A stretch of DNA of 64,000 nucleotides. It comes from Escherichia coli O157:H7 (GTDB taxonomy: Bacteria > Pseudomonadota > Gammaproteobacteria > Enterobacterales > Enterobacteriaceae). Positions 1,504 to 62,095 of this stretch are shown piece by piece. Numbering within the stretch: the stretch's first letter is position 1; every line of letters begins with the position of its first letter. The position numbers were made by a program, and so were the translations under genes. The notes under the pieces are model-generated. The model had not been told where the DNA came from and searched no databases. It saw only the letters and a program-made list of their open reading frames with translations. The stretch lies in NCBI RefSeq assembly GCF_013167455.1, contig NZ_CP038328.1; one strand, given 5' to 3'.

Positions 1504-3450
1504 TTACTTTTTGATTTCATACAGCGGTGTTTGACCCGCCACAACATGGCCCTGAGCTTTAATGATCAAGCCACTGAAATCGTCGATATTGCTGCAAACC
1601 ACCGGGCTAATCATCGAACGGGCGTTAGCGTTCAGGTAATCCAGATCCATTTCCAGAATCGGTTGCCCTGCGCTTACCTGCGCGCCCTCTTCCACCAGAC
1701 GTTTAAAGCCTTTACCTTCCAGCGCTACGGTATCGATACCCATGTGAACGACAATCTCCGCGCCTTTTTCGGTTTCCAGGCAGAACGCGTGGTTGGTGTT
1801 GAAGATTTTCACGATTGTTCCTGCGGCTGGTGATACGACGATTTTATCTGTCGGTTTCACCGCCACACCGTCACCCACCGCTTTGCTGGCGAATGCTTCG
1901 TCAGGAACCTGATCCAGTGCCACGACATCACCGGTAATCGGCGATACCAGCTCCGCGATAGATACCGCGTTTGGTACAGCCTGCGGTTTTGCTACAGGAG
2001 CGGCAGTTGCCGGAGTTGCTTCAGCAGAGGCAGCTGCTACCGGGCCACGGGCAACGACTTTCTTCATCGCATCGCCGATGGATTCTGCTTTCGCGCCAAC
2101 AATCACCTGAATAGTCTGTTTGTTCAGTTTTACTACCCCAGAAGCCCCCAGACGTTTACACATCGTATCGTTAACGCGGGCAGAGTCAGCCACGGTAAGG
2201 CGCAGACGGGTGATACAGGCGTCAATTGCTTTCAGGTTGTCAGTGCCGCCAACCGCAGCAATATAGTTGGTCGCCAGTTGATTGAGGCCTTCTTCAGTGT
2301 TGCTGTTGGCTTCTTCAGTAACGATCTCGTCTTCTTTATCTTCACGACCCGGCGTTTTCAGGTTGAACATGCGGATAACCAAACTGAACACCACGAAGTA
2401 GATAGCGAAGAAGACAACACCCATAACCAGCAGCATCCAGACGTTCTGGCTGGCGGCCGGCAGGTTATACATCAACGCGTAGTCGATAGCCCCCGCAGAG
2501 AAAGAGAAGCCGGCATGGATACCCAGCAGCGTTGCCACAAACAGGCTGATACCGGTCAGCAGTGCGTGCAGGAGGTACAGCAGCGGAGCAAGGAACATGA
2601 ACAGGAATTCCAGCGGCTCAGTCACACCGGTCAGGAACGCAGTAACAGCAACAGAAAGCAGCATCCCGCCAACCATCGGACGACGCTCTTTCGGTGCTGC
2701 GAAGTACATCGCCAGCGCCGCACCCGGCAGGCCGAACATCATGATCGGGAAGAAGCCGGACATGAACATCCCCGCGGTGCCGTCACCAGCGTAGAAACGG
2801 TTGATGTCGCCGTGGAAAACCGTACCCGCCGCGTTGGTGAATTCACCAATCTGGAACCAGGCGATGGTGTTCAGCACCTGATGCAGACCGGTTGGGATCA
2901 ACAGACGGTTGATGAAACCAAAGATACCGGAACCCAGCGCGCCCGCAGAAACGATCCACTCGCCGCCTGCATGGATAGCGTGCTGTACCGGCGGCCAGAC
3001 GTAACCAAAAATGGCCGCCAGCACCAGACAGAAGAAGCCGGTGGCGATCGGCACAAAGCGTTTGCCGCCGAAGAAGCTCAGGAAGTCCGGCAGTTTAATA
3101 TCGGACCAACGGTTATAGGCTGCGCCACCAACCAGACCGGTAATGATACCCGCCAGTACACCCATGTTAATTTCTGGGTTGATGGTCACCATCGCTTTGG
3201 TTAACACAAAGTAACCTACCGCCCCCGCCAGCGCCGCCGCACCTGCGCTGTCTTTCGACCAGCTGGATGCCACACCGATGGCGAAGATTAATGCGAGGTT
3301 ATCAAAAATCGCACCGCCCGCCTGGGCAATAAACGCAACGTTAAGTAAATCTGGCTGACCGAATCGCAGCAACAGTGCCGCCACCGGCAGCACCGCGATA
3401 GGGAGCTGTAACGCCCTACCGAGTCGCTGGAAAAAACCTAAAATATTCAT
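1504..3450 (-). CDS. nagE: PTS N-acetylglucosamine-specific EIICBA component
   Basis: 648-aa ORF with multi-TM N-terminus and C-terminal EIIB/EIIA domains; divergent from nagBACD as in E. coli. Confidence 0.95.
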   Translation of the reverse strand: MNILGFFQRLGRALQLPIAVLPVAALLLRFGQPDLLNVAFIAQAGGAIFDNLALIFAIGVASSWSKDSAGAAALAGAVGYFVLTKAMVTINPEINMGVLAGIITGLVGGAAYNRWSDIKLPDFLSFFGGKRFVPIATGFFCLVLAAIFGYVWPPVQHAIHAGGEWIVSAGALGSGIFGFINRLLIPTGLHQVLNTIAWFQIGEFTNAAGTVFHGDINRFYAGDGTAGMFMSGFFPIMMFGLPGAALAMYFAAPKERRPMVGGMLLSVAVTAFLTGVTEPLEFLFMFLAPLLYLLHALLTGISLFVATLLGIHAGFSFSAGAIDYALMYNLPAASQNVWMLLVMGVVFFAIYFVVFSLVIRMFNLKTPGREDKEDEIVTEEANSNTEEGLNQLATNYIAAVGGTDNLKAIDACITRLRLTVADSARVNDTMCKRLGASGVVKLNKQTIQVIVGAKAESIGDAMKKVVARGPVAAASAEATPATAAPVAKPQAVPNAVSIAELVSPITGDVVALDQVPDEAFASKAVGDGVAVKPTDKIVVSPAAGTIVKIFNTNHAFCLETEKGAEIVVHMGIDTVALEGKGFKRLVEEGAQVSAGQPILEMDLDYLNANARSMISPVVCSNIDDFSGLIIKAQGHVVAGQTPLYEIKK

Positions 3451-3571
3451 CTTATTCCCCCTACGAGAACCCTATTTGGCTCGTTTAAAGCCGTATTTTT
3501 ATTGTGCTGCAAATTGTACTGCCGATGTTCTGTAATCAGATTGTTAGATCATCTGCCACAGAGTGTGTGAA

Positions 3572-3596
3572 AATTTAATTCGTATCGCAAATTAAA
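3572..3596. promoter_or_regulatory. NagC operator (nagE-proximal)
   Basis: Sequence aatttaattcgtatcgcaaattaaa matches the remembered NagC operator with its TTTAATT ... AATTAAA symmetry. Confidence 0.6.
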
Positions 3597-3604
3597 CGAG
3601 TGTC

Positions 3605-3626
3605 TTTTGTGAGTTTTGTCACCAAA
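3605..3626. promoter_or_regulatory. CRP binding site in the nagE-nagB divergent region
   Basis: tgtgagttttgtcacc fits TGTGA-N6-TCACA, lying between the two NagC operators. Confidence 0.55.
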
Positions 3627-3667
3627 TATCGTTATCATCACTCCCTTTTACTGGCTAAACCAGAAAA

Positions 3668-3691
3668 CTTATTTTATCATTCAAAAAATCA
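3668..3691. promoter_or_regulatory. NagC operator (nagB-proximal)
   Basis: cttattttatcattcaaaaaatca, an AT-rich NagC-type operator about 90 bp upstream of nagB. Confidence 0.5.
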
Positions 3692-3782
3692 GGTCGGATT
3701 GACGCCTGTCTGCGCAAATCCAGGTTACGCTTAAAGATGCCTAATCCGCCAACGGCTTACATTTTACTTATTGAGGTGAATA

Positions 3783-5791
<2,009 letters not shown>

Positions 5792-5799
5792 GAGAAAGT

Positions 5800-7020
5800 A
5801 TGACACCAGGCGGACAAGCTCAGATAGGTAATGTTGATCTCGTAAAACAGCTTAACAGCGCGGCGGTTTATCGCCTGATTGACCAGTACGGGCCAATCTC
5901 GCGGATTCAGATTGCCGAGCAAAGCCAGCTTGCCCCCGCCAGCGTAACCAAAATTACGCGTCAGCTTATCGAACGCGGGCTGATCAAAGAAGTTGATCAG
6001 CAGGCCTCCACCGGGGGCCGCCGCGCTATCTCTATCGTCACCGAAACCCGCAATTTCCACGCAATCGGCGTACGGCTTGGTCGTCACGACGCCACCATCA
6101 CCCTGTTTGATCTCAGCAGCAAAGTGCTGGCAGAAGAACATTACCCGCTGCCGGAACGTACCCAGCAGACGCTGGAACATGCCCTGCTGAATGCCATTGC
6201 TCAGTTTATTGATAGCTACCAGCGCAAACTGCGCGAGCTGATCGCCATTTCCGTTATCCTGCCAGGACTTGTTGACCCGGACAGCGGCAAAATTCATTAC
6301 ATGCCGCATATTCAGGTAGAAAACTGGGGGCTGGTAGAAGCACTGGAAGAGCGTTTTAAAGTGACCTGTTTCGTTGGTCACGATATCCGTAGTCTGGCGC
6401 TGGCGGAGCACTACTTCGGTGCAAGTCAGGATTGCGAAGACTCCATTCTGGTGCGTGTCCATCGCGGAACCGGGGCCGGGATTATCTCTAACGGGCGCAT
6501 TTTTATTGGCCGCAACGGCAACGTCGGTGAAATTGGCCATATTCAGGTCGAACCGCTGGGTGAACGCTGCCACTGCGGCAACTTTGGCTGCCTGGAAACT
6601 ATCGCTGCCAACGCCGCTATTGAACAACGGGTGTTGAATCTGTTAAAGCAGGGCTACCAGAGCCGCGTGCCGCTGGACGACTGCACCATCAAAACTATCT
6701 GCAAAGCCGCGAACAAAGGCGATAGCCTGGCCTCGGAAGTGATTGAGTATGTCGGTCGTCATCTGGGCAAAACCATCGCCATTGCTATCAACTTATTTAA
6801 TCCGCAAAAAATTGTTATTGCCGGTGAAATCACCGAAGCCGATAAAGTGCTGCTCCCTGCTATTGAAAGCTGCATTAATACTCAGGCGCTGAAGGCGTTT
6901 CGTACTAATCTGCCGGTGGTACGTTCTGAGCTAGACCACCGCTCGGCAATCGGTGCTTTTGCGCTGGTAAAACGCGCCATGCTCAACGGTATTTTGCTCC
7001 AGCATTTGCTGGAAAATTAA
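5800..7020 (+). CDS. nagC: ROK-family transcriptional regulator of the nag regulon
   Basis: 406-aa ORF with N-terminal HTH and ROK zinc motif (CHCGNFGC). Confidence 0.95.
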   Translation: MTPGGQAQIGNVDLVKQLNSAAVYRLIDQYGPISRIQIAEQSQLAPASVTKITRQLIERGLIKEVDQQASTGGRRAISIVTETRNFHAIGVRLGRHDATITLFDLSSKVLAEEHYPLPERTQQTLEHALLNAIAQFIDSYQRKLRELIAISVILPGLVDPDSGKIHYMPHIQVENWGLVEALEERFKVTCFVGHDIRSLALAEHYFGASQDCEDSILVRVHRGTGAGIISNGRIFIGRNGNVGEIGHIQVEPLGERCHCGNFGCLETIAANAAIEQRVLNLLKQGYQSRVPLDDCTIKTICKAANKGDSLASEVIEYVGRHLGKTIAIAINLFNPQKIVIAGEITEADKVLLPAIESCINTQALKAFRTNLPVVRSELDHRSAIGAFALVKRAMLNGILLQHLLEN

Positions 7021-7825: not shown

Positions 7826-7857
7826 AACCACGTCTCAGGACGTGGTTTCTTATTTTT
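7826..7857 (+). terminator. rho-independent terminator after nagD/umpH
   Basis: Stem aaccacgtc / gacgtggtt followed by a T-rich run. Confidence 0.6.
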
Positions 7858-8076
7858 ACCCATCATTAAAATCATCCCATTCAATAAAACCCGCCAAAAA
7901 TTATCGATCCATCAATAAATACATCACCGCACCCTCCCCTTTTTCACAAATCAGCAATCACCATTACGTTTTTTATTTTTTCACCGCCAAATCGCTTGCG
8001 CACAGTGCTGCTTTGCGGCATTTTTTTAAACAAGCAAACACAACAAGCAACAAATACCAGGTTAACGGAGAAGGTT

Positions 8077-9741
8077 ATGTGTTCAATTTTTGGCGTATTC
8101 GATATCAAAACAGACGCAGTTGAGCTGCGTAAGAAAGCACTCGAGCTGTCACGCCTGATGCGTCATCGTGGCCCGGACTGGTCCGGTATTTATGCCAGCG
8201 ATAAAGCCATTCTCGCTCACGAACGTCTGTCAATTGTTGACGTTAACGCGGGGGCGCAACCTCTCTACAACCAACAAAAAACCCACGTACTGGCGGTAAA
8301 CGGTGAAATCTACAATCACCAGGCATTGCGCGCTGAATATGGCGATCGTTATCAGTTCCAGACAGGGTCTGACTGTGAAGTGATCCTCGCGCTGTATCAG
8401 GAAAAAGGGCCGGAATTTCTCGACGACTTGCAGGGCATGTTTGCCTTTGCCCTGTACGACAGCGAAAAAGATGCCTACCTGATTGGTCGCGACCATCTGG
8501 GGATCATCCCACTGTATATGGGCTATGACGAACACGGTCAGCTGTATGTGGCCTCAGAAATGAAAGCCCTGGTGCCAGTTTGCCGCACGATTAAAGAGTT
8601 CCCGGCGGGGAGCTATTTGTGGAGTCAGGACGGCGAAATTCGTTCTTATTATCATCGCGACTGGTTCGACTTTGATGCAGTGAAAGATAACGTGACCGAC
8701 AAAAACGAGCTGCGTCAGGCTCTGGAAGATTCCGTTAAAAGCCATCTGATGTCTGATGTGCCTTACGGTGTGCTGCTTTCTGGTGGTCTGGATTCCTCAA
8801 TTATTTCCGCTATCACCAAGAAATACGCAGCCCGTCGCGTGGAAGATCAGGAACGCTCTGAAGCCTGGTGGCCGCAGTTACACTCCTTTGCTGTAGGTCT
8901 GCCGGGTTCACCGGATCTGAAAGCAGCCCAGGAAGTGGCAAACCATCTGGGCACTGTGCATCATGAAATTCACTTCACTGTACAGGAAGGTCTGGACGCC
9001 ATCCGCTACGTGATTTACCACATCGAAACCTATGATGTGACCACTATTCGCGCTTCAACACCGATGTATTTAATGTCGCGTAAGATCAAAGCGATGGGCA
9101 TTAAAATGGTGCTGTCCGGTGAAGGTTCTGATGAAGTGTTCGGCGGTTATCTTTACTTCCACAAAGCACCGAATGCCAAAGAACTGCATGAAGAGACGGT
9201 GCGTAAACTGCTGGCCCTGCATATGTATGACTGCGCGCGTGCCAACAAAGCGATGTCAGCCTGGGGCGTGGAAGCACGCGTTCCGTTCCTCGACAAGAAA
9301 TTCCTCGACGTGGCGATGCGCATTAACCCGCAGGATAAAATGTGCGGTAACGGCAAGATGGAAAAACACATCCTGCGTGAATGTTTTGAGTCATACCTGC
9401 CCGCAAGCGTGGCCTGGCGGCAGAAAGAGCAGTTCTCCGATGGCGTCGGTTACAGTTGGATCGACACCCTGAAAGAAGTGGCGGCGCAGCAGGTTTCTGA
9501 TCAACAGCTGGAAACTGCCCGCTTCCGCTTCCCGTACAACACACCGACCTCAAAAGAAGCGTATCTGTACCGGGAGATCTTTGAAGAACTATTCCCGCTT
9601 CCGAGCGCCGCTGAGTGCGTGCCGGGCGGTCCTTCCGTCGCGTGTTCTTCCGCTAAAGCGATCGAATGGGATGAAGCGTTCAAGAAAATGGACGATCCGT
9701 CTGGTCGCGCGGTTGGTGTTCACCAGTCGGCGTATAAGTAA
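8077..9741 (+). CDS. asnB: asparagine synthetase B (glutamine-hydrolysing)
   Basis: Starts MCSIFGVF (class II amidotransferase N-terminal Cys); 554 aa. The ORF track's upstream ATG at 7996 is an in-frame extension. Confidence 0.95.
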   Translation: MCSIFGVFDIKTDAVELRKKALELSRLMRHRGPDWSGIYASDKAILAHERLSIVDVNAGAQPLYNQQKTHVLAVNGEIYNHQALRAEYGDRYQFQTGSDCEVILALYQEKGPEFLDDLQGMFAFALYDSEKDAYLIGRDHLGIIPLYMGYDEHGQLYVASEMKALVPVCRTIKEFPAGSYLWSQDGEIRSYYHRDWFDFDAVKDNVTDKNELRQALEDSVKSHLMSDVPYGVLLSGGLDSSIISAITKKYAARRVEDQERSEAWWPQLHSFAVGLPGSPDLKAAQEVANHLGTVHHEIHFTVQEGLDAIRYVIYHIETYDVTTIRASTPMYLMSRKIKAMGIKMVLSGEGSDEVFGGYLYFHKAPNAKELHEETVRKLLALHMYDCARANKAMSAWGVEARVPFLDKKFLDVAMRINPQDKMCGNGKMEKHILRECFESYLPASVAWRQKEQFSDGVGYSWIDTLKEVAAQQVSDQQLETARFRFPYNTPTSKEAYLYREIFEELFPLPSAAECVPGGPSVACSSAKAIEWDEAFKKMDDPSGRAVGVHQSAYK

Positions 9742-9749
9742 GAAATGCG

Positions 9750-9785
9750 AAACAGCCCCGGTGAAATCCGGGGCTGTTTCAGTTA
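9750..9785 (+). terminator. rho-independent terminator after asnB
   Basis: Stem aacagccccgg / ccggggctgtt followed by a T-rich tail. Confidence 0.6.
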
Positions 9786-10051
9786 TTGAGGTGCTTGTTG
9801 ATTCTGATATGCAGTAAGGAAATGTTCCGGGTTTGCCACATCACTGTTTGACAACTCATCACTGTAGGCCAGTATTTCATAGATTAATTTCCCACCACTA
9901 TTGTTAAATTCCGAATTTCATCCTGTATGACAAAAGAATGGCTGTAGGGTGGGAAAAAACACAAAGTAAACAATAATTGACGAATATAGCGCCACGCTGT
10001 TCGCAACCTAACCAAACAGTCACTTTCGAGCAATTTTCCTTGAAAAAGAGG

Positions 10052-10080
10052 TTGACGCTGCAAGGCTCTATACGCATAAT
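10052..10080 (+). promoter_or_regulatory. candidate sigma70 promoter of the metT tRNA operon
   Basis: TTGACG (-35), 17-bp spacer, CATAAT (-10), GC-rich discriminator gcgcc, about 40 bp upstream of the first tRNA. Confidence 0.5.
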
Positions 10081-10120
10081 GCGCCCCGCAACGCCGATAA
10101 GGTATCGCGAAAAAAAAGAT

Positions 10121-10197
10121 GGCTACGTAGCTCAGTTGGTTAGAGCACATCACTCATAATGATGGGGTCACAGGTTCGAATCCCGTCGTAGCCACCA
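10121..10197 (+). tRNA. metT: tRNA-Met (elongator, CAU)
   Basis: ggctacgtagctcagttggttagagcacatcactcataatgatgg...gccacca; cloverleaf with CAT anticodon and encoded CCA. Confidence 0.95.
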
Positions 10198-10207
10198 TCT
10201 TTTTTTT

Positions 10208-10292
10208 GCGGGAGTGGCGAAATTGGTAGACGCACCAGATTTAGGTTCTGGCGCCGCAAGGTGTGCGAGTTCAAGTCTCGCCTCCCGCACCA
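10208..10292 (+). tRNA. leuW: tRNA-Leu (long variable arm)
   Basis: gcgggagtggcgaaattggtag...cctcccgcacca, an 85-nt class II tRNA. Confidence 0.9.
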
Positions 10293-10315
10293 TTCACCAG
10301 AAAGCGTTGTACGGA

Positions 10316-10390
10316 TGGGGTATCGCCAAGCGGTAAGGCACCGGTTTTTGATACCGGCATTCCCTGGTTCGAATCCAGGTACCCCAGCCA
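10316..10390 (+). tRNA. glnU: tRNA-Gln (UUG)
   Basis: tggggtatcgccaagcggtaaggcaccggtttttgataccgg... with TTG anticodon and CCA end. Confidence 0.95.
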
Positions 10391-10424
10391 TCTTCTTTGA
10401 GTAAGCGGTTCACCGCCCGGTTAT

Positions 10425-10499
10425 TGGGGTATCGCCAAGCGGTAAGGCACCGGTTTTTGATACCGGCATTCCCTGGTTCGAATCCAGGTACCCCAGCCA
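10425..10499 (+). tRNA. glnW: tRNA-Gln (UUG), identical copy
   Basis: Identical to the 10316-10390 sequence. Confidence 0.95.
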
Positions 10500-10514
10500 T
10501 CGAAGAAACAATCT

Positions 10515-10591
10515 GGCTACGTAGCTCAGTTGGTTAGAGCACATCACTCATAATGATGGGGTCACAGGTTCGAATCCCGTCGTAGCCACCA
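10515..10591 (+). tRNA. metU: tRNA-Met (elongator, CAU), second copy
   Basis: Identical to the metT sequence. Confidence 0.95.
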
Positions 10592-10639
10592 AATTCTGAA
10601 TGTGTCGAATACGTTCGGCAAATTCAAAAACCAATTTGT

Positions 10640-10714
10640 TGGGGTATCGCCAAGCGGTAAGGCACCGGATTCTGATTCCGGCATTCCGAGGTTCGAATCC
10701 TCGTACCCCAGCCA
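10640..10714 (+). tRNA. glnV: tRNA-Gln (CUG), wild-type anticodon
   Basis: tggggtatcgccaagcggtaaggcaccggattctgattccgg...; anticodon CTG, not the CTA of supE. Confidence 0.95.
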
Positions 10715-10751
10715 ATTTATTCAAGACGCTTACCTTGTAAGTGCACCCAGT

Positions 10752-10826
10752 TGGGGTATCGCCAAGCGGTAAGGCACCGGATTCTGATTCCGGCATTCCG
10801 AGGTTCGAATCCTCGTACCCCAGCCA
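10752..10826 (+). tRNA. glnX: tRNA-Gln (CUG), second copy
   Basis: Identical to the 10640-10714 sequence. Confidence 0.95.
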
Positions 10827-10831
10827 CATTA

Positions 10832-10862
10832 AAAAAGCTCGCTTCGGCGAGCTTTTTGCTTT
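10832..10862 (+). terminator. rho-independent terminator of the tRNA operon
   Basis: aaaaagctcgc ttcg gcgagcttttt followed by gcttttc. Confidence 0.7.
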
Positions 10863-10875
10863 TCTGCGTTCACTC

Positions 10876-10974
10876 AATGTCGAATGCGATGTTGACACGT
10901 CTTATCCTTCAATGTCGGATGCGACGCTGCCGCGTCTTATCCGACCTACGGTTGGCACGCATCCGGCAATGTTG
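10876..10974. repeat. REP/BIME-like cluster between the tRNA operon and ubiF
   Basis: Repeated gatgcgacg...cgtcttatcc motifs and ggcacgcatccggca palindromes. Confidence 0.5.
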
Positions 10975-10979
10975 TAAGG

Positions 10980-12155
10980 CTACAACCCTAACGCATATTT
11001 CAGCGCCTGACGTTTCAACACGCCAGCACGCTCCGCCGCCATCAAACCAAGATTACGCACAAAACGCAGCGGCGGCAGATTATTACTGAATCCGGCATAA
11101 AACAGATCCATACCGCTCTGCATAATGAAGTTATCCGCCATGCGCCGCATCTGGTAACGCTTGAGGACAGGATAACTGGCCCACGCTTCGCCGTAGCTGC
11201 GGGCATTCACCAGAACATCAATCAGGGCATCGACATCACGATAACCAAGATTCACCCCCTGCCCCGCCAGCGGATGGATGGTGTGCGCGGCATCACCCAC
11301 CAGCGCAAGCCCCGGCTGCACATACTGCAACGCATGGCGGCGTGTCAGCGGAAACGCACCAGCGGCAAGCGGTGTAACGTAACCCAGACGCGACGGGAAA
11401 TGCTTCGCGATTTCCACCTGTAACTGCGCCATATTCATATTCTGCAACTGGCGAATGCGCGCCGGAGAGTCGTACCACACCAGCGATGCCCAGTTATCAA
11501 ACAGCGGCAGAAACGCGCGCGGTCCATCCGGGGTAAATTGCTGCCAGGTGCTATCGCCGGGATCGTTCTCGCACTGGACGCTAATCAACATGCACGACTG
11601 CGCATACTGCCATGCATGAACGCCAATTCCCGCCATCTGCCGCACCTGCGAATTTGCGCCGTCGGCACCAATCACCAGCTTCGCGCGAATCACTTCACCG
11701 CCTTTCAGCTCCAGCTCCTGAAGATCATTATCTCGATGTAATGCAATCAGCGAGGTTGGCACACGTAACGTTACTTTCGGATGCGCTTCCAGCGCCTGCC
11801 ACAATGCCTGTTGCAGGACAGTGTTTTCTACCATATAGCCAAGCAACGGCAACTTTAATTCGGCTGCGTCAAATACCACATGCGCCGTTTCCCACTCCCA
11901 CGTTTCCAGTCTGCGGTAAGGATGGCAACGCATAGCCTGTACTGCATCCCAGACCCCTAACCCTTTAAGCAATGATACCGAAGCCGCGCTGATCGCCGAG
12001 ATCCGCACGTCCGGTTGGCTATCAGCGACAAACGGTGCAGGTTCTGCGTGCTCGATCACCGTTACCGTAAATCCGTGCTGTGCCAGCCCCAGCGCCAGTG
12101 CGCCGCCGACCATTCCTCCGCCGACAATGGCAATTTCCGTTGGTTGATTTGTCAT
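10980..12155 (-). CDS. ubiF: FAD-dependent ubiquinone biosynthesis hydroxylase
   Basis: Starts MTNQPTEIAIVGGGMVGG (Rossmann GxGxxG); 391 aa. The ORF-track start at 12161 is 2 codons upstream. Confidence 0.9.
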   Translation of the reverse strand: MTNQPTEIAIVGGGMVGGALALGLAQHGFTVTVIEHAEPAPFVADSQPDVRISAISAASVSLLKGLGVWDAVQAMRCHPYRRLETWEWETAHVVFDAAELKLPLLGYMVENTVLQQALWQALEAHPKVTLRVPTSLIALHRDNDLQELELKGGEVIRAKLVIGADGANSQVRQMAGIGVHAWQYAQSCMLISVQCENDPGDSTWQQFTPDGPRAFLPLFDNWASLVWYDSPARIRQLQNMNMAQLQVEIAKHFPSRLGYVTPLAAGAFPLTRRHALQYVQPGLALVGDAAHTIHPLAGQGVNLGYRDVDALIDVLVNARSYGEAWASYPVLKRYQMRRMADNFIMQSGMDLFYAGFSNNLPPLRFVRNLGLMAAERAGVLKRQALKYALGL

Positions 12156-13877: not shown

Positions 13878-14918
13878 TTGAACATAGACACTCGCGAAAT
13901 CACCCTGGAGCCAGCAGACAACGCGCGTCTGTTGAGCCTGTGCGGCCCGTTTGATGACAACATCAAGCAGCTCGAACGCCGTCTCGGCATCGAGATCAAT
14001 CGCCGCGATAACCACTTTAAACTGACCGGCCGTCCGATTTGCGTCACCGCTGCGGCAGACATTCTGCGTAGCCTGTATGTCGATACTGCCCCGATGCGCG
14101 GTCAGATTCAGGATATCGAACCGGAACAGATCCACCTTGCGATTAAAGAAGCACGGGTACTGGAGCAAAGCGCGGAGAGCGTGCCGGAGTACGGCAAAGC
14201 GGTCAATATCAAAACCAAACGCGGCGTAATTAAGCCGCGCACGCCAAACCAGGCGCAGTACATCGCCAATATTCTCGACCATGACATTACCTTCGGCGTT
14301 GGCCCGGCGGGTACGGGTAAAACCTACCTGGCAGTGGCTGCGGCAGTTGATGCCCTGGAGCGTCAGGAAATTCGCCGTATTCTGCTGACTCGTCCGGCAG
14401 TAGAAGCCGGTGAGAAACTGGGCTTCCTGCCTGGCGATTTAAGCCAGAAAGTAGACCCGTATCTGCGCCCGCTGTACGACGCGCTGTTTGAAATGCTGGG
14501 TTTTGAGAAAGTCGAGAAACTGATTGAGCGCAACGTTATTGAAGTCGCACCGCTGGCCTATATGCGTGGTCGTACGCTGAACGACGCATTTATCATTCTC
14601 GATGAGAGCCAGAACACTACCATCGAACAGATGAAGATGTTCCTGACCCGTATCGGTTTTAACTCAAAAGCGGTTATCACCGGCGACGTCACACAGATCG
14701 ACCTGCCGCGTAATACTAAATCAGGCTTACGTCATGCCATCGAAGTGCTGGCCGATGTCGAAGAGATCAGCTTTAACTTCTTCCACAGCGAAGACGTGGT
14801 TCGTCACCCGGTGGTGGCGCGTATCGTTAACGCCTATGAAGCCTGGGAAGAAGCCGAACAAAAACGTAAAGCGGCGCTGGCGGCAGAACGCAAGCGCGAA
14901 GAACAGGAACAAAAATGA
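13878..14918 (+). CDS. ybeZ: PhoH-like ATPase
   Basis: Walker [10 protein letters not shown] recall the protein starting [12 protein letters not shown], which here requires a TTG start at 13878 (346 aa); the ORF-track ATG at 13839 is the alternative. Confidence 0.85.
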
Positions 14919-15382
14919 GTCAGGTGATCCTCGATTTACAACTGGCATGTGAAGATAACTCCGGATTGCCGGAAGAGAGCCAGTTTCAAACATGGCTGAA
15001 TGCGGTGATCCCGCAGTTTCAGGAAGAGTCGGAAGTGACGATTCGCGTGGTCGATACCGCCGAAAGCCACAGTCTCAATCTGACCTATCGCGGTAAGGAT
15101 AAGCCGACCAACGTGCTCTCCTTCCCGTTTGAAGTGCCGCCTGGCATGGAGATGTCGCTACTGGGCGATCTGGTTATCTGCCGTCAGATGGTTGAGAAGG
15201 AAGCTCAGGAGCAAGGCAAACCACTGGAGGCGCACTGGGCGCATATGGTGGTGCACGGCAGTCTGCATTTGTTAGGTTACGATCACATCGAAGATGACGA
15301 AGCAGAAGAAATGGAAGCCCTCGAAACAGAGATTATGCTTGCTCTGGGCTATGAGGATCCGTACATTGCCGAGAAAGAATAA
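14915..15382 (+). CDS. ybeY: endoribonuclease YbeY (16S rRNA maturation)
   Basis: 155-aa ORF with HGxLHLxGYDH metal-binding motif; overlaps the ybeZ stop. Confidence 0.95.
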
Positions 15383-15471
15383 TTTGCCAGCCATTTGACT
15401 GGCAGACGTCCCCGCCGTTGGTGATTAACGACGGCGTTTTGATTAACTAACATGAGAACCCATACGACGCC

Positions 15472-16350
15472 ATGAGCGACGACAATTCACACAGTAGTGA
15501 CACGATAAGCAACAAGAAGGGATTTTTCTCCCTGTTACTCAGCCAACTTTTCCACGGTGAACCGAAAAACCGTGACGAACTGCTGGCGCTGATCCGTGAT
15601 TCCGGGCAGAACGACCTTATCGACGAAGATACGCGCGATATGCTCGAAGGGGTGATGGACATCGCAGACCAACGCGTCCGCGACATCATGATCCCCCGCT
15701 CCCAGATGATTACCCTGAAACGCAACCAGACGCTGGACGAATGCCTTGATGTCATCATCGAGTCCGCCCACTCACGTTTCCCGGTGATTAGCGAAGACAA
15801 AGATCACATTGAAGGGATTCTGATGGCGAAAGACTTGCTGCCGTTTATGCGCAGCGATGCTGAAGCCTTCAGCATGGACAAAGTGTTACGTCAGGCGGTT
15901 GTCGTTCCTGAAAGTAAGCGCGTAGACCGGATGCTGAAAGAGTTTCGCTCTCAGCGTTACCACATGGCGATCGTTATTGACGAATTCGGTGGGGTTTCCG
16001 GTCTGGTAACCATTGAAGACATCCTGGAACTGATTGTTGGTGAGATTGAAGACGAATATGACGAAGAAGATGATATCGACTTCCGTCAGCTGAGTCGTCA
16101 TACCTGGACCGTGCGCGCACTGGCTTCCATTGAAGACTTCAACGAAGCGTTCGGCACCCACTTTAGCGATGAAGAAGTCGACACTATCGGTGGTCTGGTG
16201 ATGCAGGCATTTGGGCATCTTCCGGCACGTGGCGAAACCATCGACATCGACGGTTACCAGTTCAAAGTGGCGATGGCCGACAGTCGGCGTATTATTCAGG
16301 TTCATGTCAAAATCCCGGATGACTCACCCCAGCCGAAGCTGGATGAATAA
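15472..16350 (+). CDS. corC: CorC/YbeX magnesium/cobalt efflux-associated protein (CBS domains)
   Basis: 292-aa ORF; recognised. Confidence 0.9.
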
Positions 16351-16374
16351 AACCGAAACTGGATAGATAACTAC

Positions 16375-17913
16375 ATGGCTTTTGCCTCATTAATTGAACG
16401 CCAGCGCATTCGCCTGCTGCTGGCGTTATTATTCGGTGCCTGCGGAACGCTGGCCTTCTCTCCTTACGACGTCTGGCCTGCGGCGATTATTTCGCTGATG
16501 GGGCTTCAGGCGTTGACCTTTAACCGCCGTCCACTCCAGTCTGCCGCTATTGGCTTTTGCTGGGGATTTGGCCTCTTTGGCAGCGGTATTAACTGGGTCT
16601 ATGTCAGCATCGCGACCTTTGGCGGAATGCCTGGCCCGGTTAACATCTTCCTGGTGGTACTGCTGGCGGCGTATTTGTCGCTGTATACCGGACTGTTTGC
16701 TGGCGTGCTGTCGCGCCTGTGGCCGAAAACCACCTGGCTGCGCGTGGCGATTGCCGCCCCTGCTCTCTGGCAAGTGACCGAGTTTCTGCGCGGTTGGGTA
16801 CTGACAGGCTTCCCGTGGTTACAGTTCGGCTATAGCCAGATTGATGGCCCGTTAAAAGGGCTGGCACCGCTAATGGGCGTGGAAGCCATTAACTTCCTGC
16901 TTATGATGGTTAGCGGCCTGCTGGCACTGGCGTTAGTCAAACGCAACTGGCGTCCGCTGGTGGTGGCCGTCGTGCTGTTTGCCCTTCCCTTCCCGCTGCG
17001 TTACATCCGGTGGTTTACCCCACAACCGGAGAAAACCATTCAGGTTTCGATGGTTCAGGGCGATATTCCGCAATCGCTGAAATGGGACGAAGGCCAGCTT
17101 CTTAATACGCTGAAGATTTACTACAACGCAACGGCACCGCTGATGGGCAAATCATCGTTGATTATCTGGCCGGAGTCGGCGATAACCGATCTGGAAATTA
17201 ATCAGCAACCGTTCCTCAAAGCACTGGACGGTGAGTTGCGTGATAAAGGTAGCTCGCTGGTGACCGGGATTGTTGACGCGCGTCTTAATAAGCAGAACCG
17301 TTACGATACCTACAACACCATCATCACACTGGGTAAAGGTGCACCGTACAGCTACGAATCAGCCGATCGCTATAACAAAAACCATCTGGTGCCGTTTGGC
17401 GAGTTTGTCCCGCTGGAGTCGATTCTGCGTCCGTTAGCACCGTTCTTTGATCTGCCGATGTCGTCGTTCAGCCGTGGGCCATATATCCAGCCGCCGCTGT
17501 CGGCAAATGGTATTGAGCTTACTGCGGCTATTTGCTACGAGATCATTCTCGGCGAGCAAGTGCGCGATAACTTCCGCCCGGATACCGACTATCTGCTGAC
17601 TATCTCCAACGATGCGTGGTTTGGTAAGTCTATTGGTCCATGGCAGCACTTCCAGATGGCGCGAATGCGTGCGCTGGAGCTGGCGCGCCCACTGTTGCGC
17701 AGCACCAACAACGGCATTACGGCGGTGATTGGCCCGCAGGGTGAGATTCAGGCGATGATCCCGCAGTTCACCCGCGAGGTGTTAACCACTAACGTGACGC
17801 CGACCACCGGACTCACACCATACGCACGTACCGGCAACTGGCCGCTGTGGGTGCTGACGGCACTGTTTGGTTTTGCTGCTGTGTTGATGAGTCTGCGTCA
17901 GCGACGTAAATAA
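16375..17913 (+). CDS. lnt: apolipoprotein N-acyltransferase
   Basis: 512-aa ORF with multi-TM N-terminus and CN-hydrolase domain. Confidence 0.95.
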
Positions 17914-18011
17914 TCCCTTCTTATCGTGCCGGAATACATCCCATATTTCGGCACGCTCACCGGATGCGGCATCAGTGCATTATCCGGATAACAATATTCT
18001 CCTATCCAACT

Positions 18012-18028
18012 TTGGCACATCTATTGCT
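18012..18028 (+). promoter_or_regulatory. candidate sigma54 (-24/-12) promoter upstream of gltI
   Basis: tTGGCACatctaTTGCt matches TGGCAC-N5-TTGC with the GG and GC elements 10 nt apart; about 280 bp upstream of gltI. Confidence 0.5.
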
Positions 18029-18309
18029 TTGTTATACAAGGCAAAGCTTTAACCAGCATCAGTACAACCCGGTTGCACCACAGCAATCCACCGGTAGCAC
18101 CAAAAGAGTGCATTTTAAGAATTTTGCTTCGGAATGGTGCGGCGCACCTCCCAAATATAAACAATAAAACAGCAATATCTTTACATTTAGCCAAACTAAA
18201 TGTTACCTAACAGGCACAACACTACACAATAAAGTTGCAGATGATAACAACACAAACACTCACAACGGGTATCCATGCGTTCTTAACGCAGAAGATAAAG
18301 GAGTTGGAT

Positions 18310-19218
18310 ATGCAATTACGTAAACCTGCCACAGCAATCCTGGCCCTGGCGCTTTCCGCAGGACTGGCACAGGCAGATGACGCCGCCCCGGCAGCGGGCA
18401 GTACGCTGGACAAAATCGCCAAAAACGGCGTGATTGTCGTCGGTCACCGTGAATCTTCAGTACCTTTCTCTTATTACGACAATCAGCAAAAAGTGGTGGG
18501 TTATTCGCAGGATTACTCCAACGCCATTGTTGAAGCAGTGAAAAAGAAACTCAACAAACCGGACTTGCAGGTGAAACTGATTCCGATTACCTCACAAAAC
18601 CGTATTCCGCTGCTGCAAAACGGCACTTTTGATTTTGAATGTGGTTCTACCACCAACAACGTCGAACGCCAAAAACAGGCGGCTTTCTCTGACACTATTT
18701 TCGTGGTCGGTACGCGCCTGTTGACCAAAAAGGGCGGCGATATCAAAGATTTTGCCGACCTGAAAGGCAAAGCCGTAGTCGTCACTTCCGGCACTACCTC
18801 TGAAGTTTTGCTCAACAAACTGAATGAAGAGCAAAAAATGAATATGCGCATCATCAGCGCCAAAGATCACGGTGACTCTTTCCGTACCCTGGAAAGCGGT
18901 CGTGCCGTTGCCTTTATGATGGATGATGCTCTGCTGGCCGGTGAACGTGCGAAAGCGAAGAAACCAGACAACTGGGATATCGTCGGCAAGCCGCAGTCTC
19001 AGGAAGCCTATGGTTGCATGTTGCGTAAAGACGATCCGCAGTTCAAAAAGCTGATGGATGACACTATCGCTCAGGTGCAGACCTCCGGTGAAGCGGAAAA
19101 ATGGTTTGATAAATGGTTCAAAAATCCCATTCCGCCGAAAAACCTGAACATGAATTTCGAACTGTCAGACGAAATGAAAGCACTGTTCAAAGAACCGAAT
19201 GACAAAGCACTGAACTAA
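18310..19218 (+). CDS. gltI: glutamate/aspartate ABC transporter periplasmic binding protein
   Basis: Starts MQLRKPATAILALALSAGLAQA (signal peptide); 302 aa. The ORF-track start at 18235 is an upstream in-frame ATG. Confidence 0.9.
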   Translation: MQLRKPATAILALALSAGLAQADDAAPAAGSTLDKIAKNGVIVVGHRESSVPFSYYDNQQKVVGYSQDYSNAIVEAVKKKLNKPDLQVKLIPITSQNRIPLLQNGTFDFECGSTTNNVERQKQAAFSDTIFVVGTRLLTKKGGDIKDFADLKGKAVVVTSGTTSEVLLNKLNEEQKMNMRIISAKDHGDSFRTLESGRAVAFMMDDALLAGERAKAKKPDNWDIVGKPQSQEAYGCMLRKDDPQFKKLMDDTIAQVQTSGEAEKWFDKWFKNPIPPKNLNMNFELSDEMKALFKEPNDKALN

Positions 19219-19374
19219 TTACAAGAACCAGGGGCGGAAATTCTAGCCCTCTCGATTGTTACGTAGCACGGACAGACTATACGCCTGATGGTCGTTCCCC
19301 ATCGGGCCTGAAAACCGCAATACGCTGGGTAACAATCTTCGAGGGTAGCAGTTAACGCTGCTACCCTCTTTTTT
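19215..19374 (+). ncRNA. sroC: SroC sRNA (GcvB sponge) in the gltI-gltJ intergenic region
   Basis: Position and size match the known gltI 3'UTR-derived sRNA; ends at terminator hairpin gagggtagcag ttaacg ctgctaccctc plus T6 (19341-19374). Confidence 0.55.
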
Positions 19375-19387
19375 CTGGAGTAGATTT

Positions 19388-47242: not shown

Positions 47243-48037
47243 TCATAATAATTGCGGCGGCGCAAAGCGACGGTTGTTTAAGACGGGCAGTTGCGCGCGC
47301 ACCTGACGCACACGTTCGGGCGTCACTTCCGCCATAATGAGTGCAGGCATTTCTGACGCTGCCGCAATGGTGACGCCAAAGGGATCTATAATCCGGCTTT
47401 GCCCGATATTTTTGTTCCCGCACTCCCCCGCCGCCACCATATAACAGGTGGTATCCAGCGCACGAGCGGCAAGCAACGTTGACCAGTGGTGCTCTTTGAG
47501 CGGCCCGCGAACCCAGGCGGCAGGAAGTACCAGGATTTCAGCTCCCTGTAATGCCTGTGCCAGCGCCAGCTCTGGAAAGCGTAAGTCATAACAGGTCATC
47601 AGACCGACCTTCATCCCCTCCACCTCGAGTAACGGAGCAATTTCATTACCAGCATCAACACGGCGTGATTCCTGAATGGCAAATGCATCATAGAGATGCA
47701 ATTTGGCATAACGGGCGACGATGTTTCCTGCCTGTAGCGCCACCAGCATATTCCATGCGCGCCCCGGCGTTGAAGGAACATGAATCGTCAGAATTGTCGT
47801 CATCATGTTACGTTTACTTTCTCGCCGTAAACGTCCGAGGAATTCGCCTTCCAGCAGCTGTGCTGATTTAACCGATAGATCTGCATCATGATCATCGCGC
47901 GCCAGCAATGCTTCCGGCAGGACAAACAGCGATACGTCGTTTTCCGCCGCCTGCGCCATCAACGAGGCACAAATCTCAGCGTTCTTTTCCCACACAGATG
48001 TAACAGCAAACTGTCCTGCAGCAACCAGCATTGCCAC
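47243..48037 (-). CDS. ybeM: carbon-nitrogen hydrolase (nitrilase superfamily), intact
   Basis: 264-aa uninterrupted ORF; as I recall, ybeM is a frameshifted pseudogene in K-12 MG1655. Confidence 0.85.
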
Positions 48038-48512: not shown

Positions 48513-48545
48513 AAAAAAAACCCGCTGATTAAGCGGGTTTTGAAT
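48513..48545. terminator. bidirectional terminator between crcB and cspE
   Basis: aaaaacccgct gatta agcgggtttt. Confidence 0.7.
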
Positions 48546-48560
48546 TCTTGCTGACGTATC

Positions 48561-48770
48561 TTACAGAGCGATTACGTTTGCAGCAGAAGGGCCTTTGGCA
48601 CCGTTAGTGATTTCGAACTCTACGCGCTGACCTTCAGCAAGAGTTTTAAAACCATTAGTCTGGATTGCAGAGAAGTGTACGAACACGTCTTTGCTGCCGT
48701 CTTCCGGAGTAATGAAACCGAATCCTTTGGACTCATTAAACCACTTAACGTTACCTTTAATCTTAGACAT
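48561..48770 (-). CDS. cspE: cold-shock-domain protein CspE
   Basis: Starts [20 protein letters not shown]; 69 aa. The ORF-track start at 48854 is an upstream in-frame ATG in the leader. Confidence 0.95.
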
Positions 48771-48944
48771 CAAAATTACCTTTACATGAAAAATAGACAC
48801 AAATGCTGTGTCGGTTACCAGTACACCAATTGTGGTACGCTTTGTCCAGTGCAACTTTACTAAAAAGTGATAAAAATCGCGTTATTTTTGATGTTGCTTA
48901 TTTTAGTTATTGATTTTAAAGAAGTTACTAAAACTTCATTTGTC

Positions 48945-49505
48945 TCAAAACTGAAAGCGCATCCAGGCAAAGTACACATTGCCATTGTTGTAGGTACCCG
49001 GAATGTAGGTCATCTGAAAAGTAACTGGGCCATAACCCACGGAGGCCAATGGCAGTAGAACCGGGAGAGGGATGTAATTCCAGTTATCGCGTGCCGTTAC
49101 GCCAGCGGTGAATCCCAGACCTAAATGAAAATTTTCATCCGCCAGCGGTCGCCAGGTACTTTCCCATCCGTATCCGGCAATCGGTTCCCATTTGTTCCAC
49201 GAGTCCTTAAATGCCATGGCATACAGGCCATGCCAGTTTCCTTTTTCATCCCAACGCGACAGGCCAAAACCGCCACCCCACGGTCGCTCGTTATAGCGAT
49301 CGGTTTTTTCTTTGTCGTAAGCGAAACGTGCATGCCAGGTGATGGCAGGAATATATAAATCATAATGTTCAGGCTGTTGCCAGGTTTGTACAATATTTTC
49401 TCTAAACGTTGTCATCCACTCATCTGCGTTAGCAAAAACTTTACCAACGCTGATTAACTGAATAAAAACAAAGGAAAAGATAGCGACATATTTACTCACG
49501 TTCAT
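48945..49505 (-). CDS. pagP: lipid A palmitoyltransferase PagP (outer membrane)
   Basis: Starts [25 protein letters not shown]; 186 aa. Confidence 0.9.
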
Positions 49506-61866: not shown

Positions 61867-62012
61867 TCCTCTGATTTACAAAACACGCTAATTCGTCTTT
61901 CATAAACCATGACGATTAAGAATTATACATAATGCGCTGCATTGAGGAATTCCCTGAATGTGACGCAAATCACTTCAAAGAGTGAGCAACAGTCAGTATC
62001 ATCATGTGAGTT

Positions 62013-62047
62013 AAACCCTCGCCGCCTGACGGTGAGGGTTTTCTTTT
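62013..62047 (+). terminator. hairpin plus T-run in the rna-rnk intergenic region
   Basis: aaccctcgcc gcctgac ggtgagggtt followed by ttctttt. Confidence 0.45.
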
Positions 62048-62095
62048 GGGTATGTTTATCTGCGACACTCGCAGTACCGACGACATGGAGTAAAA

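Follow-up and report, generated by a model that had tools for sequence, protein, structure and literature searches.

Among the described systems closest to the loci considered here are the Nit1-type amidases, with Nit1 reportedly treated by Peracchi et al. in 2017, and the IS5 insertion at ybeJ/gltI of Escherichia coli K-12, which is said to have been described by Zinser et al. in 2003. Deaminated glutathione arises as a side-product of transaminases, and its hydrolysis to 2-oxoglutarate and Cys-Gly by enzymes of the Nit1 family is regarded as metabolite repair (PMC7041631). In K-12 MG1655 (NC_000913.3), ybeM is annotated as a pseudogene (b4581, 788 nt), and IS5D/insH3 (b0656, 687851-689045) is located between gltI and lnt. 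The IS5 at gltI/lnt is a known K-12 feature, one of the 11 IS5 copies of strain BW25113 (PMC11677980). By northern blots it was reported to blunt gltI-sroC induction under nitrogen limitation, and O157 and O111, both devoid of this IS5, do induce SroC (PMC9731577).

Here we have analysed a 64,000-nucleotide stretch of E. coli DNA (in its entirety referred to as the window), for which a preliminary description had deduced a non-MG1655 background from an intact ybeM gene and an IS5-free lnt-gltI interval. This background was corroborated, even though the two markers alone are weak: they rule out K-12 without pointing to a particular lineage, and it is identity at the SNP level that does so. Along its 64 kb the window is 98.2-98.5% identical to MG1655 (about 1004 mismatches), with the same gene order and two structural breaks, i.e. 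the IS5 and a block of about 140 bp of REP/BIME-like palindromic sequence, which MG1655 carries in the asnB-nagD/umpH spacer and which is missing from the window at 7847-7878. By the same comparison, it differs from O157:H7 Sakai by 6 SNPs and from O157:H7 EDL933 by 5 SNPs and one 1-bp indel (99.991% identity in both cases), and from O157:H7 PV15-279 at 23 positions (99.964%). In ybeM, the lnt-gltI spacer and the djlC and ybeQ nonsense codons, the window agrees with Sakai and EDL933 throughout. At five positions (7890, 9007, 34421, 52958 and 55707) it deviates from these two genomes alike and therefore comes from another O157:H7 sub-lineage. In Sakai it corresponds, in reverse orientation, to approximately 723.4-787.4 kb.

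With high confidence, we thus read the window as core chromosome of E. coli O157:H7, from a sub-lineage separated by only a few SNPs from Sakai and EDL933, in which both loci are in an ancestral and species-typical state, with the K-12 states being derived. Since rfb-O157, fliC-H7, stx and the LEE are all located outside of the 64-kb window, this assignment rests on near-identity of the core to the reference genomes and on two clade-restricted nonsense alleles, djlC E151* and ybeQ W52*, all of which were found; the hallmarks of K-12, i.e. the codon-67 deletion in ybeM, IS5D between gltI and lnt and near-identity to MG1655, are absent. Window positions 25001-50000 are 100% identical in at least 30 O157:H7 genomes, among them isolates from UK cattle, e.g. 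strains 9000, 10671 and the Z-series, and match 315 genomes at 99% identity or more.

In the window, ybeM is encoded on the minus strand. The uninterrupted 264-codon CN-hydrolase reading frame noted in the preliminary description is indeed open throughout, from a GTG at 48037 to the TGA at 47243. This GTG (48035-48037) overlaps the Shine-Dalgarno sequence AGGAGG (48042-48037), and an ATG at 48031, two codons further 3', is positioned 5 nt past AGGAGG. The latter is also the start in the PGAP and Sakai annotations, which give a 789-nt coding sequence (47243-48031). The YbeM protein is therefore likely to consist of 262 amino acids starting at ATG 48031, with the 264 codons representing the maximal open reading frame. 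It matches the Pfam family CN_hydrolase (PF00795) with E = 8e-41 and the domain spans its full length; against NCBIfam NF033621 (de_GSH_amidase) it scores 452 bits, with the curated cut-off being 355 bits and residues 3-261 covering profile positions 2-260 of 260. Because of these two family scores ybeM has to be a real gene, and a chance open reading frame was ruled out. In the nearest solved structures, NitFhit (1EMS) and yeast Nit2 (4H5U), the Glu/Lys/Cys triad is aligned with that of YbeM, where E40, K110 and C147 reside within the motifs LPEA, AKLHL and MTCYD, corresponding to lpec, nklhl and sicyd of 1EMS, whose catalytic residues we take to be E54, K127 and C169. By its family membership, YbeM of the window would be a Nit1-type deaminated-glutathione amidase of the nitrilase superfamily. 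Separate observations on ybeM in other strains concern an NsrR ChIP peak in the crcB-ybeM interval of CFT073 and K-12 (PMC5320621) and out-of-frame sub-fragments of UTI89 ybeM, which upon over-expression lead to filamentation, whereas the full reading frame does not (PMC6206680).

That ybeM is a frameshifted pseudogene in MG1655, as the preliminary description states, proved to be correct. Relative to the window, the 788-nt MG1655 gene shows 11 substitutions and the loss of a single G, which is the middle base (window position 47832) of codon 67 (CGT, Arg; 47831-47833, minus strand). The shifted frame reaches a stop at codon 76, i.e. past the catalytic Glu40 and ahead of Lys110 and Cys147, and we infer that the resulting 75-residue product would not hydrolyse deaminated glutathione. 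When the frame is restored, the amino acids 3' of the shift are the same as in the window without any change, and because this sequence still encodes exactly these amino acids, the lesion is young. W3110 has both K-12 states, the ybeM frameshift as well as the IS5, so MG1655 and W3110 alike deviate from the window at both loci.

The deletion is not restricted to K-12, however. In a survey of 5424 complete genomes with an 80-mer across the deletion, using exact matches with every alignment spanning the junction, 859 genomes carried the codon-67 deletion; conversely, this exact allele is missing from about 84%, and an intact ybeM is common. The 788-nt frameshifted gene is shared by a chicken isolate from China and a dog isolate from Switzerland, with the lnt-gltI spacer of the chicken isolate being IS-free and 396 bp long. 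Approximately 500 of the 859 carriers do not show the K-12 IS5 junction; isolates from chicken, dog and river water as well as clinical ones are among them. Since natural isolates without the IS5 carry the deletion, the ybeM frameshift must predate K-12 and represents a natural polymorphism. Rather than being private to K-12 or a laboratory lesion, the codon-67 deletion is very probably a natural loss-of-function allele that is identical by descent throughout a large clade. If so, repair of deaminated glutathione would be dispensable in one successful natural lineage, with O157:H7, B and most other E. coli keeping ybeM under purifying selection. The two markers of K-12, the ybeM deletion and the IS5, thus differ in age. 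How widespread the ‘K-12’ ybeM frameshift is among natural isolates is the sole mildly new point of our analysis.

The second locus is the spacer between lnt, which encodes apolipoprotein N-acyltransferase (16375-17913, plus strand, ending with TAA), and gltI, the gene for the binding protein of the Glu/Asp ABC transporter (18310-19218, plus strand, with its ATG at 18310). At 17914-18309 it comprises exactly 396 bp and contains no transposase-like open reading frame, and no IS5 homology was detected anywhere in the 64-kb window, in full agreement with what had been stated for this interval. The IS5 (insH) stated for this site in MG1655 is indeed there, with the element being IS5D/insH3. The MG1655 spacer of 1595 bp is accounted for by the 396 bp, the 1195 bp of IS5D and 4 bp of TTAG target duplication. 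In the window, the target CTAA (reading TTAG in the complementary strand), which in MG1655 is duplicated around the element, is empty and lies at 18207-18210 on the plus strand; the K-12 insertion at this target is 100 bp upstream of gltI. The IS5 junction was found in 351 genomes and, among the 60 matches listed, nearly all are named K-12 or laboratory strains; about 93% of complete genomes are in the IS5-free state. Of both markers, the IS5 thus looks like the one that comes closest to being K-12-specific.

Being IS5-free does not mean having the spacer of the window, which as a contiguous short sequence is present in 1834 genomes. In ST131 and BL21, window positions 17911-18064 are replaced by about 2.2 kb including a 1878-bp gene for a rhomboid-family protease. 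The resulting long form of the lnt-gltI region measures about 2.46 kb (locus coordinates 8999-11455 in ST131 and 14057-16514 in BL21), and its gene for a rhomboid family intramembrane serine protease is on the opposite strand. The lnt-gltI spacer of E. coli therefore exists in three forms, i.e. a short form of 396 bp, the same short form with IS5 and a long form with the rhomboid-family gene. The long form was confirmed directly in ST131 and BL21, and split matches of the same pattern in other genomes point to it as the prevailing form in E. coli.

Within the short spacer, a putative sigma-54-type -24/-12 element, TGGCACATCTATTGCT (18013-18028, plus strand), is located 297 nt ahead of the gltI start codon. 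No other -24/-12 match to the full consensus occurs in the 64-kb window, where 0.07 would be expected by chance. Relative to the IS5 target, the element lies towards lnt, and in K-12 the IS5 stands between it and gltI. The long form of ST131 features a similar element, TGGCATGTAAGTTGCT, at the same offset. A generic scan of the spacer for sigma-70 promoters and terminators did not yield anything above chance. The small RNA SroC is encoded in the 3' UTR of gltI (19214-19376, plus strand; Rfam RF00369, 170.8 bits). The uninterrupted spacer would keep the gltIJKL-sroC operon joined to its upstream control region, and the sequence of the window fits the published IS5 effect, with the published northern blots pointing to a regulatory consequence of IS5 absence. 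Further Rfam hits at gathering score in the window are a cspA-type thermoregulator over the 5' region of cspE, next to crcB (48513-48955, minus strand), the rnk leader (61942-62050, plus strand) and a cluster of seven tRNAs, metT-leuW-glnUW-metU-glnVX (10121-10823, plus strand).

The background of the window had been considered relevant for interpreting nonsense alleles of djlC and ybeQ, and this is what we found. Both genes are intact in K-12, and the annotations of PV15-279, Sakai and EDL933 list them as pseudogenes. In djlC (24394-25845, minus strand), codon 151 is TAA (25393-25395) and GAA in K-12; in ybeQ (29511-30488, plus strand), codon 52 is TAG (29664-29666) and TGG in K-12. When 5426 genomes were surveyed with exact 80-mers centred on the stops, djlC E151* was found in 308 and ybeQ W52* in 297 genomes, with O157:H7 strains heading the matches. 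The two alleles are hence confined to some 300 genomes, a number close to that of the genomes with at least 99% identity to the window (315), and are fixed alleles of this lineage and neither new mutations nor sequencing errors. Considering the region more generally, the ybeQ 80-mer matches only 3149 of the 5426 genomes and the djlC 80-mer only 4360, and the chaperone-like cluster ybeQ-ybeR-djlB-ybeT-ybeU-djlC (24394-30488) shows independent decay from one lineage to another. In the BL21 locus, at coordinates 3231-6526, ybeQ is interrupted by a stop at codon 171 and djlC by a frameshift, with no annotation of djlB, ybeT or ybeU between ybeR and djlC. In the chicken isolate ECCHD184, a frameshift affects hscC at locus coordinates 9813-10001.

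Could the same two loci have been brought about in a different background? Engineered IS-free, reduced-genome K-12 strains exist, and a K-12 derivative of this type, with the IS5 removed and ybeM repaired, would show the gene order that the window shares with MG1655. Yet, the roughly 1004 substitutions relative to MG1655 over the 64 kb refute such a descent by their density alone, and a K-12 derivative should neither contain the djlC and ybeQ nonsense codons, which are absent from K-12, nor have lost the roughly 140 bp of REP/BIME sequence between asnB and umpH, which makes this origin vanishingly improbable. The E. coli B lineage (BL21/REL606), which is equally improbable, is compatible with the two markers themselves, as ybeM is intact there as well, with the BL21 YbeM protein (WP_000959109.1) being identical, and no IS5 resides between lnt and gltI. 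The spacer of BL21, however, is the long form with the rhomboid-family gene, its gltL is interrupted by IS150, its ybeQ stop is at codon 171 instead of codon 52, annotated djlB, ybeT and ybeU genes are missing between ybeR and djlC, and the ybeM region is only 99.3% identical to that of the window.

A close relative from the same clade that is not O157 itself, e.g. an O55:H7-like strain, is somewhat harder to tell apart, because the loci that determine the serotype are outside of the window and the 315 genomes matching at 99% or more slightly outnumber the exact carriers of the two nonsense 80-mers (297 and 308). Nevertheless, the top 30 perfect matches over 25 kb all either bear an O157 or O157:H7 label or were isolated from cattle or humans, with genomes of 5.4-5.7 Mb, and over the 64 kb Sakai and EDL933 are just 5-6 SNPs away. 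We regard such a relative as very unlikely, if less far-fetched than a K-12 or B origin. An O157:H7 origin of the window is thus by far the best-fitting reading, and no observation speaks against it.

Overall, apart from the spread of the ybeM frameshift, everything reported here is already annotated or published and amounts to ordinary strain typing. An O157:H7 background means that the djlC and ybeQ stops and the other differences between the window and K-12 are alleles which the reference genomes already annotate. For physiology, it implies that a working YbeM amidase is to be expected in O157:H7 but not in K-12, and that nitrogen limitation should lead to normal induction of gltIJKL-sroC in O157:H7, as published. 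With both of these properties being expected of O157:H7, K-12 would be a poor model at ybeM and at lnt-gltI.

How, then, does this region compare with its known counterparts? With Nit1, NitFhit (1EMS) and yeast Nit2 (4H5U), YbeM shares a full-length CN_hydrolase domain and the conserved Glu-Lys-Cys triad, but it is a bacterial single-domain protein without a Fhit fusion and is only distantly related to the eukaryotic structures (E about 1e-29 to 1e-27). The ybeM gene of K-12 MG1655 and W3110 (b4581) is its ortholog, 98.5% identical and with two amino-acid differences in the restored frame. At the K-12 site of IS5D/insH3, the window has the same CTAA target, but in unoccupied form, consistent with the window retaining an ancestral state at both loci, from which the K-12 deletion and the IS5 insertion would be derived. 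BL21 makes the very same YbeM protein as O157:H7 despite five nucleotide differences in its gene. Finally, ybeM of Sakai (ECs_0664, NP_308691.1) and of EDL933 (WP_000959109.1, annotated as ‘deaminated glutathione amidase’) does not differ from that of the window by a single nucleotide and is embedded in the same neighbourhood, crcB-ybeM-tatE-lipA.
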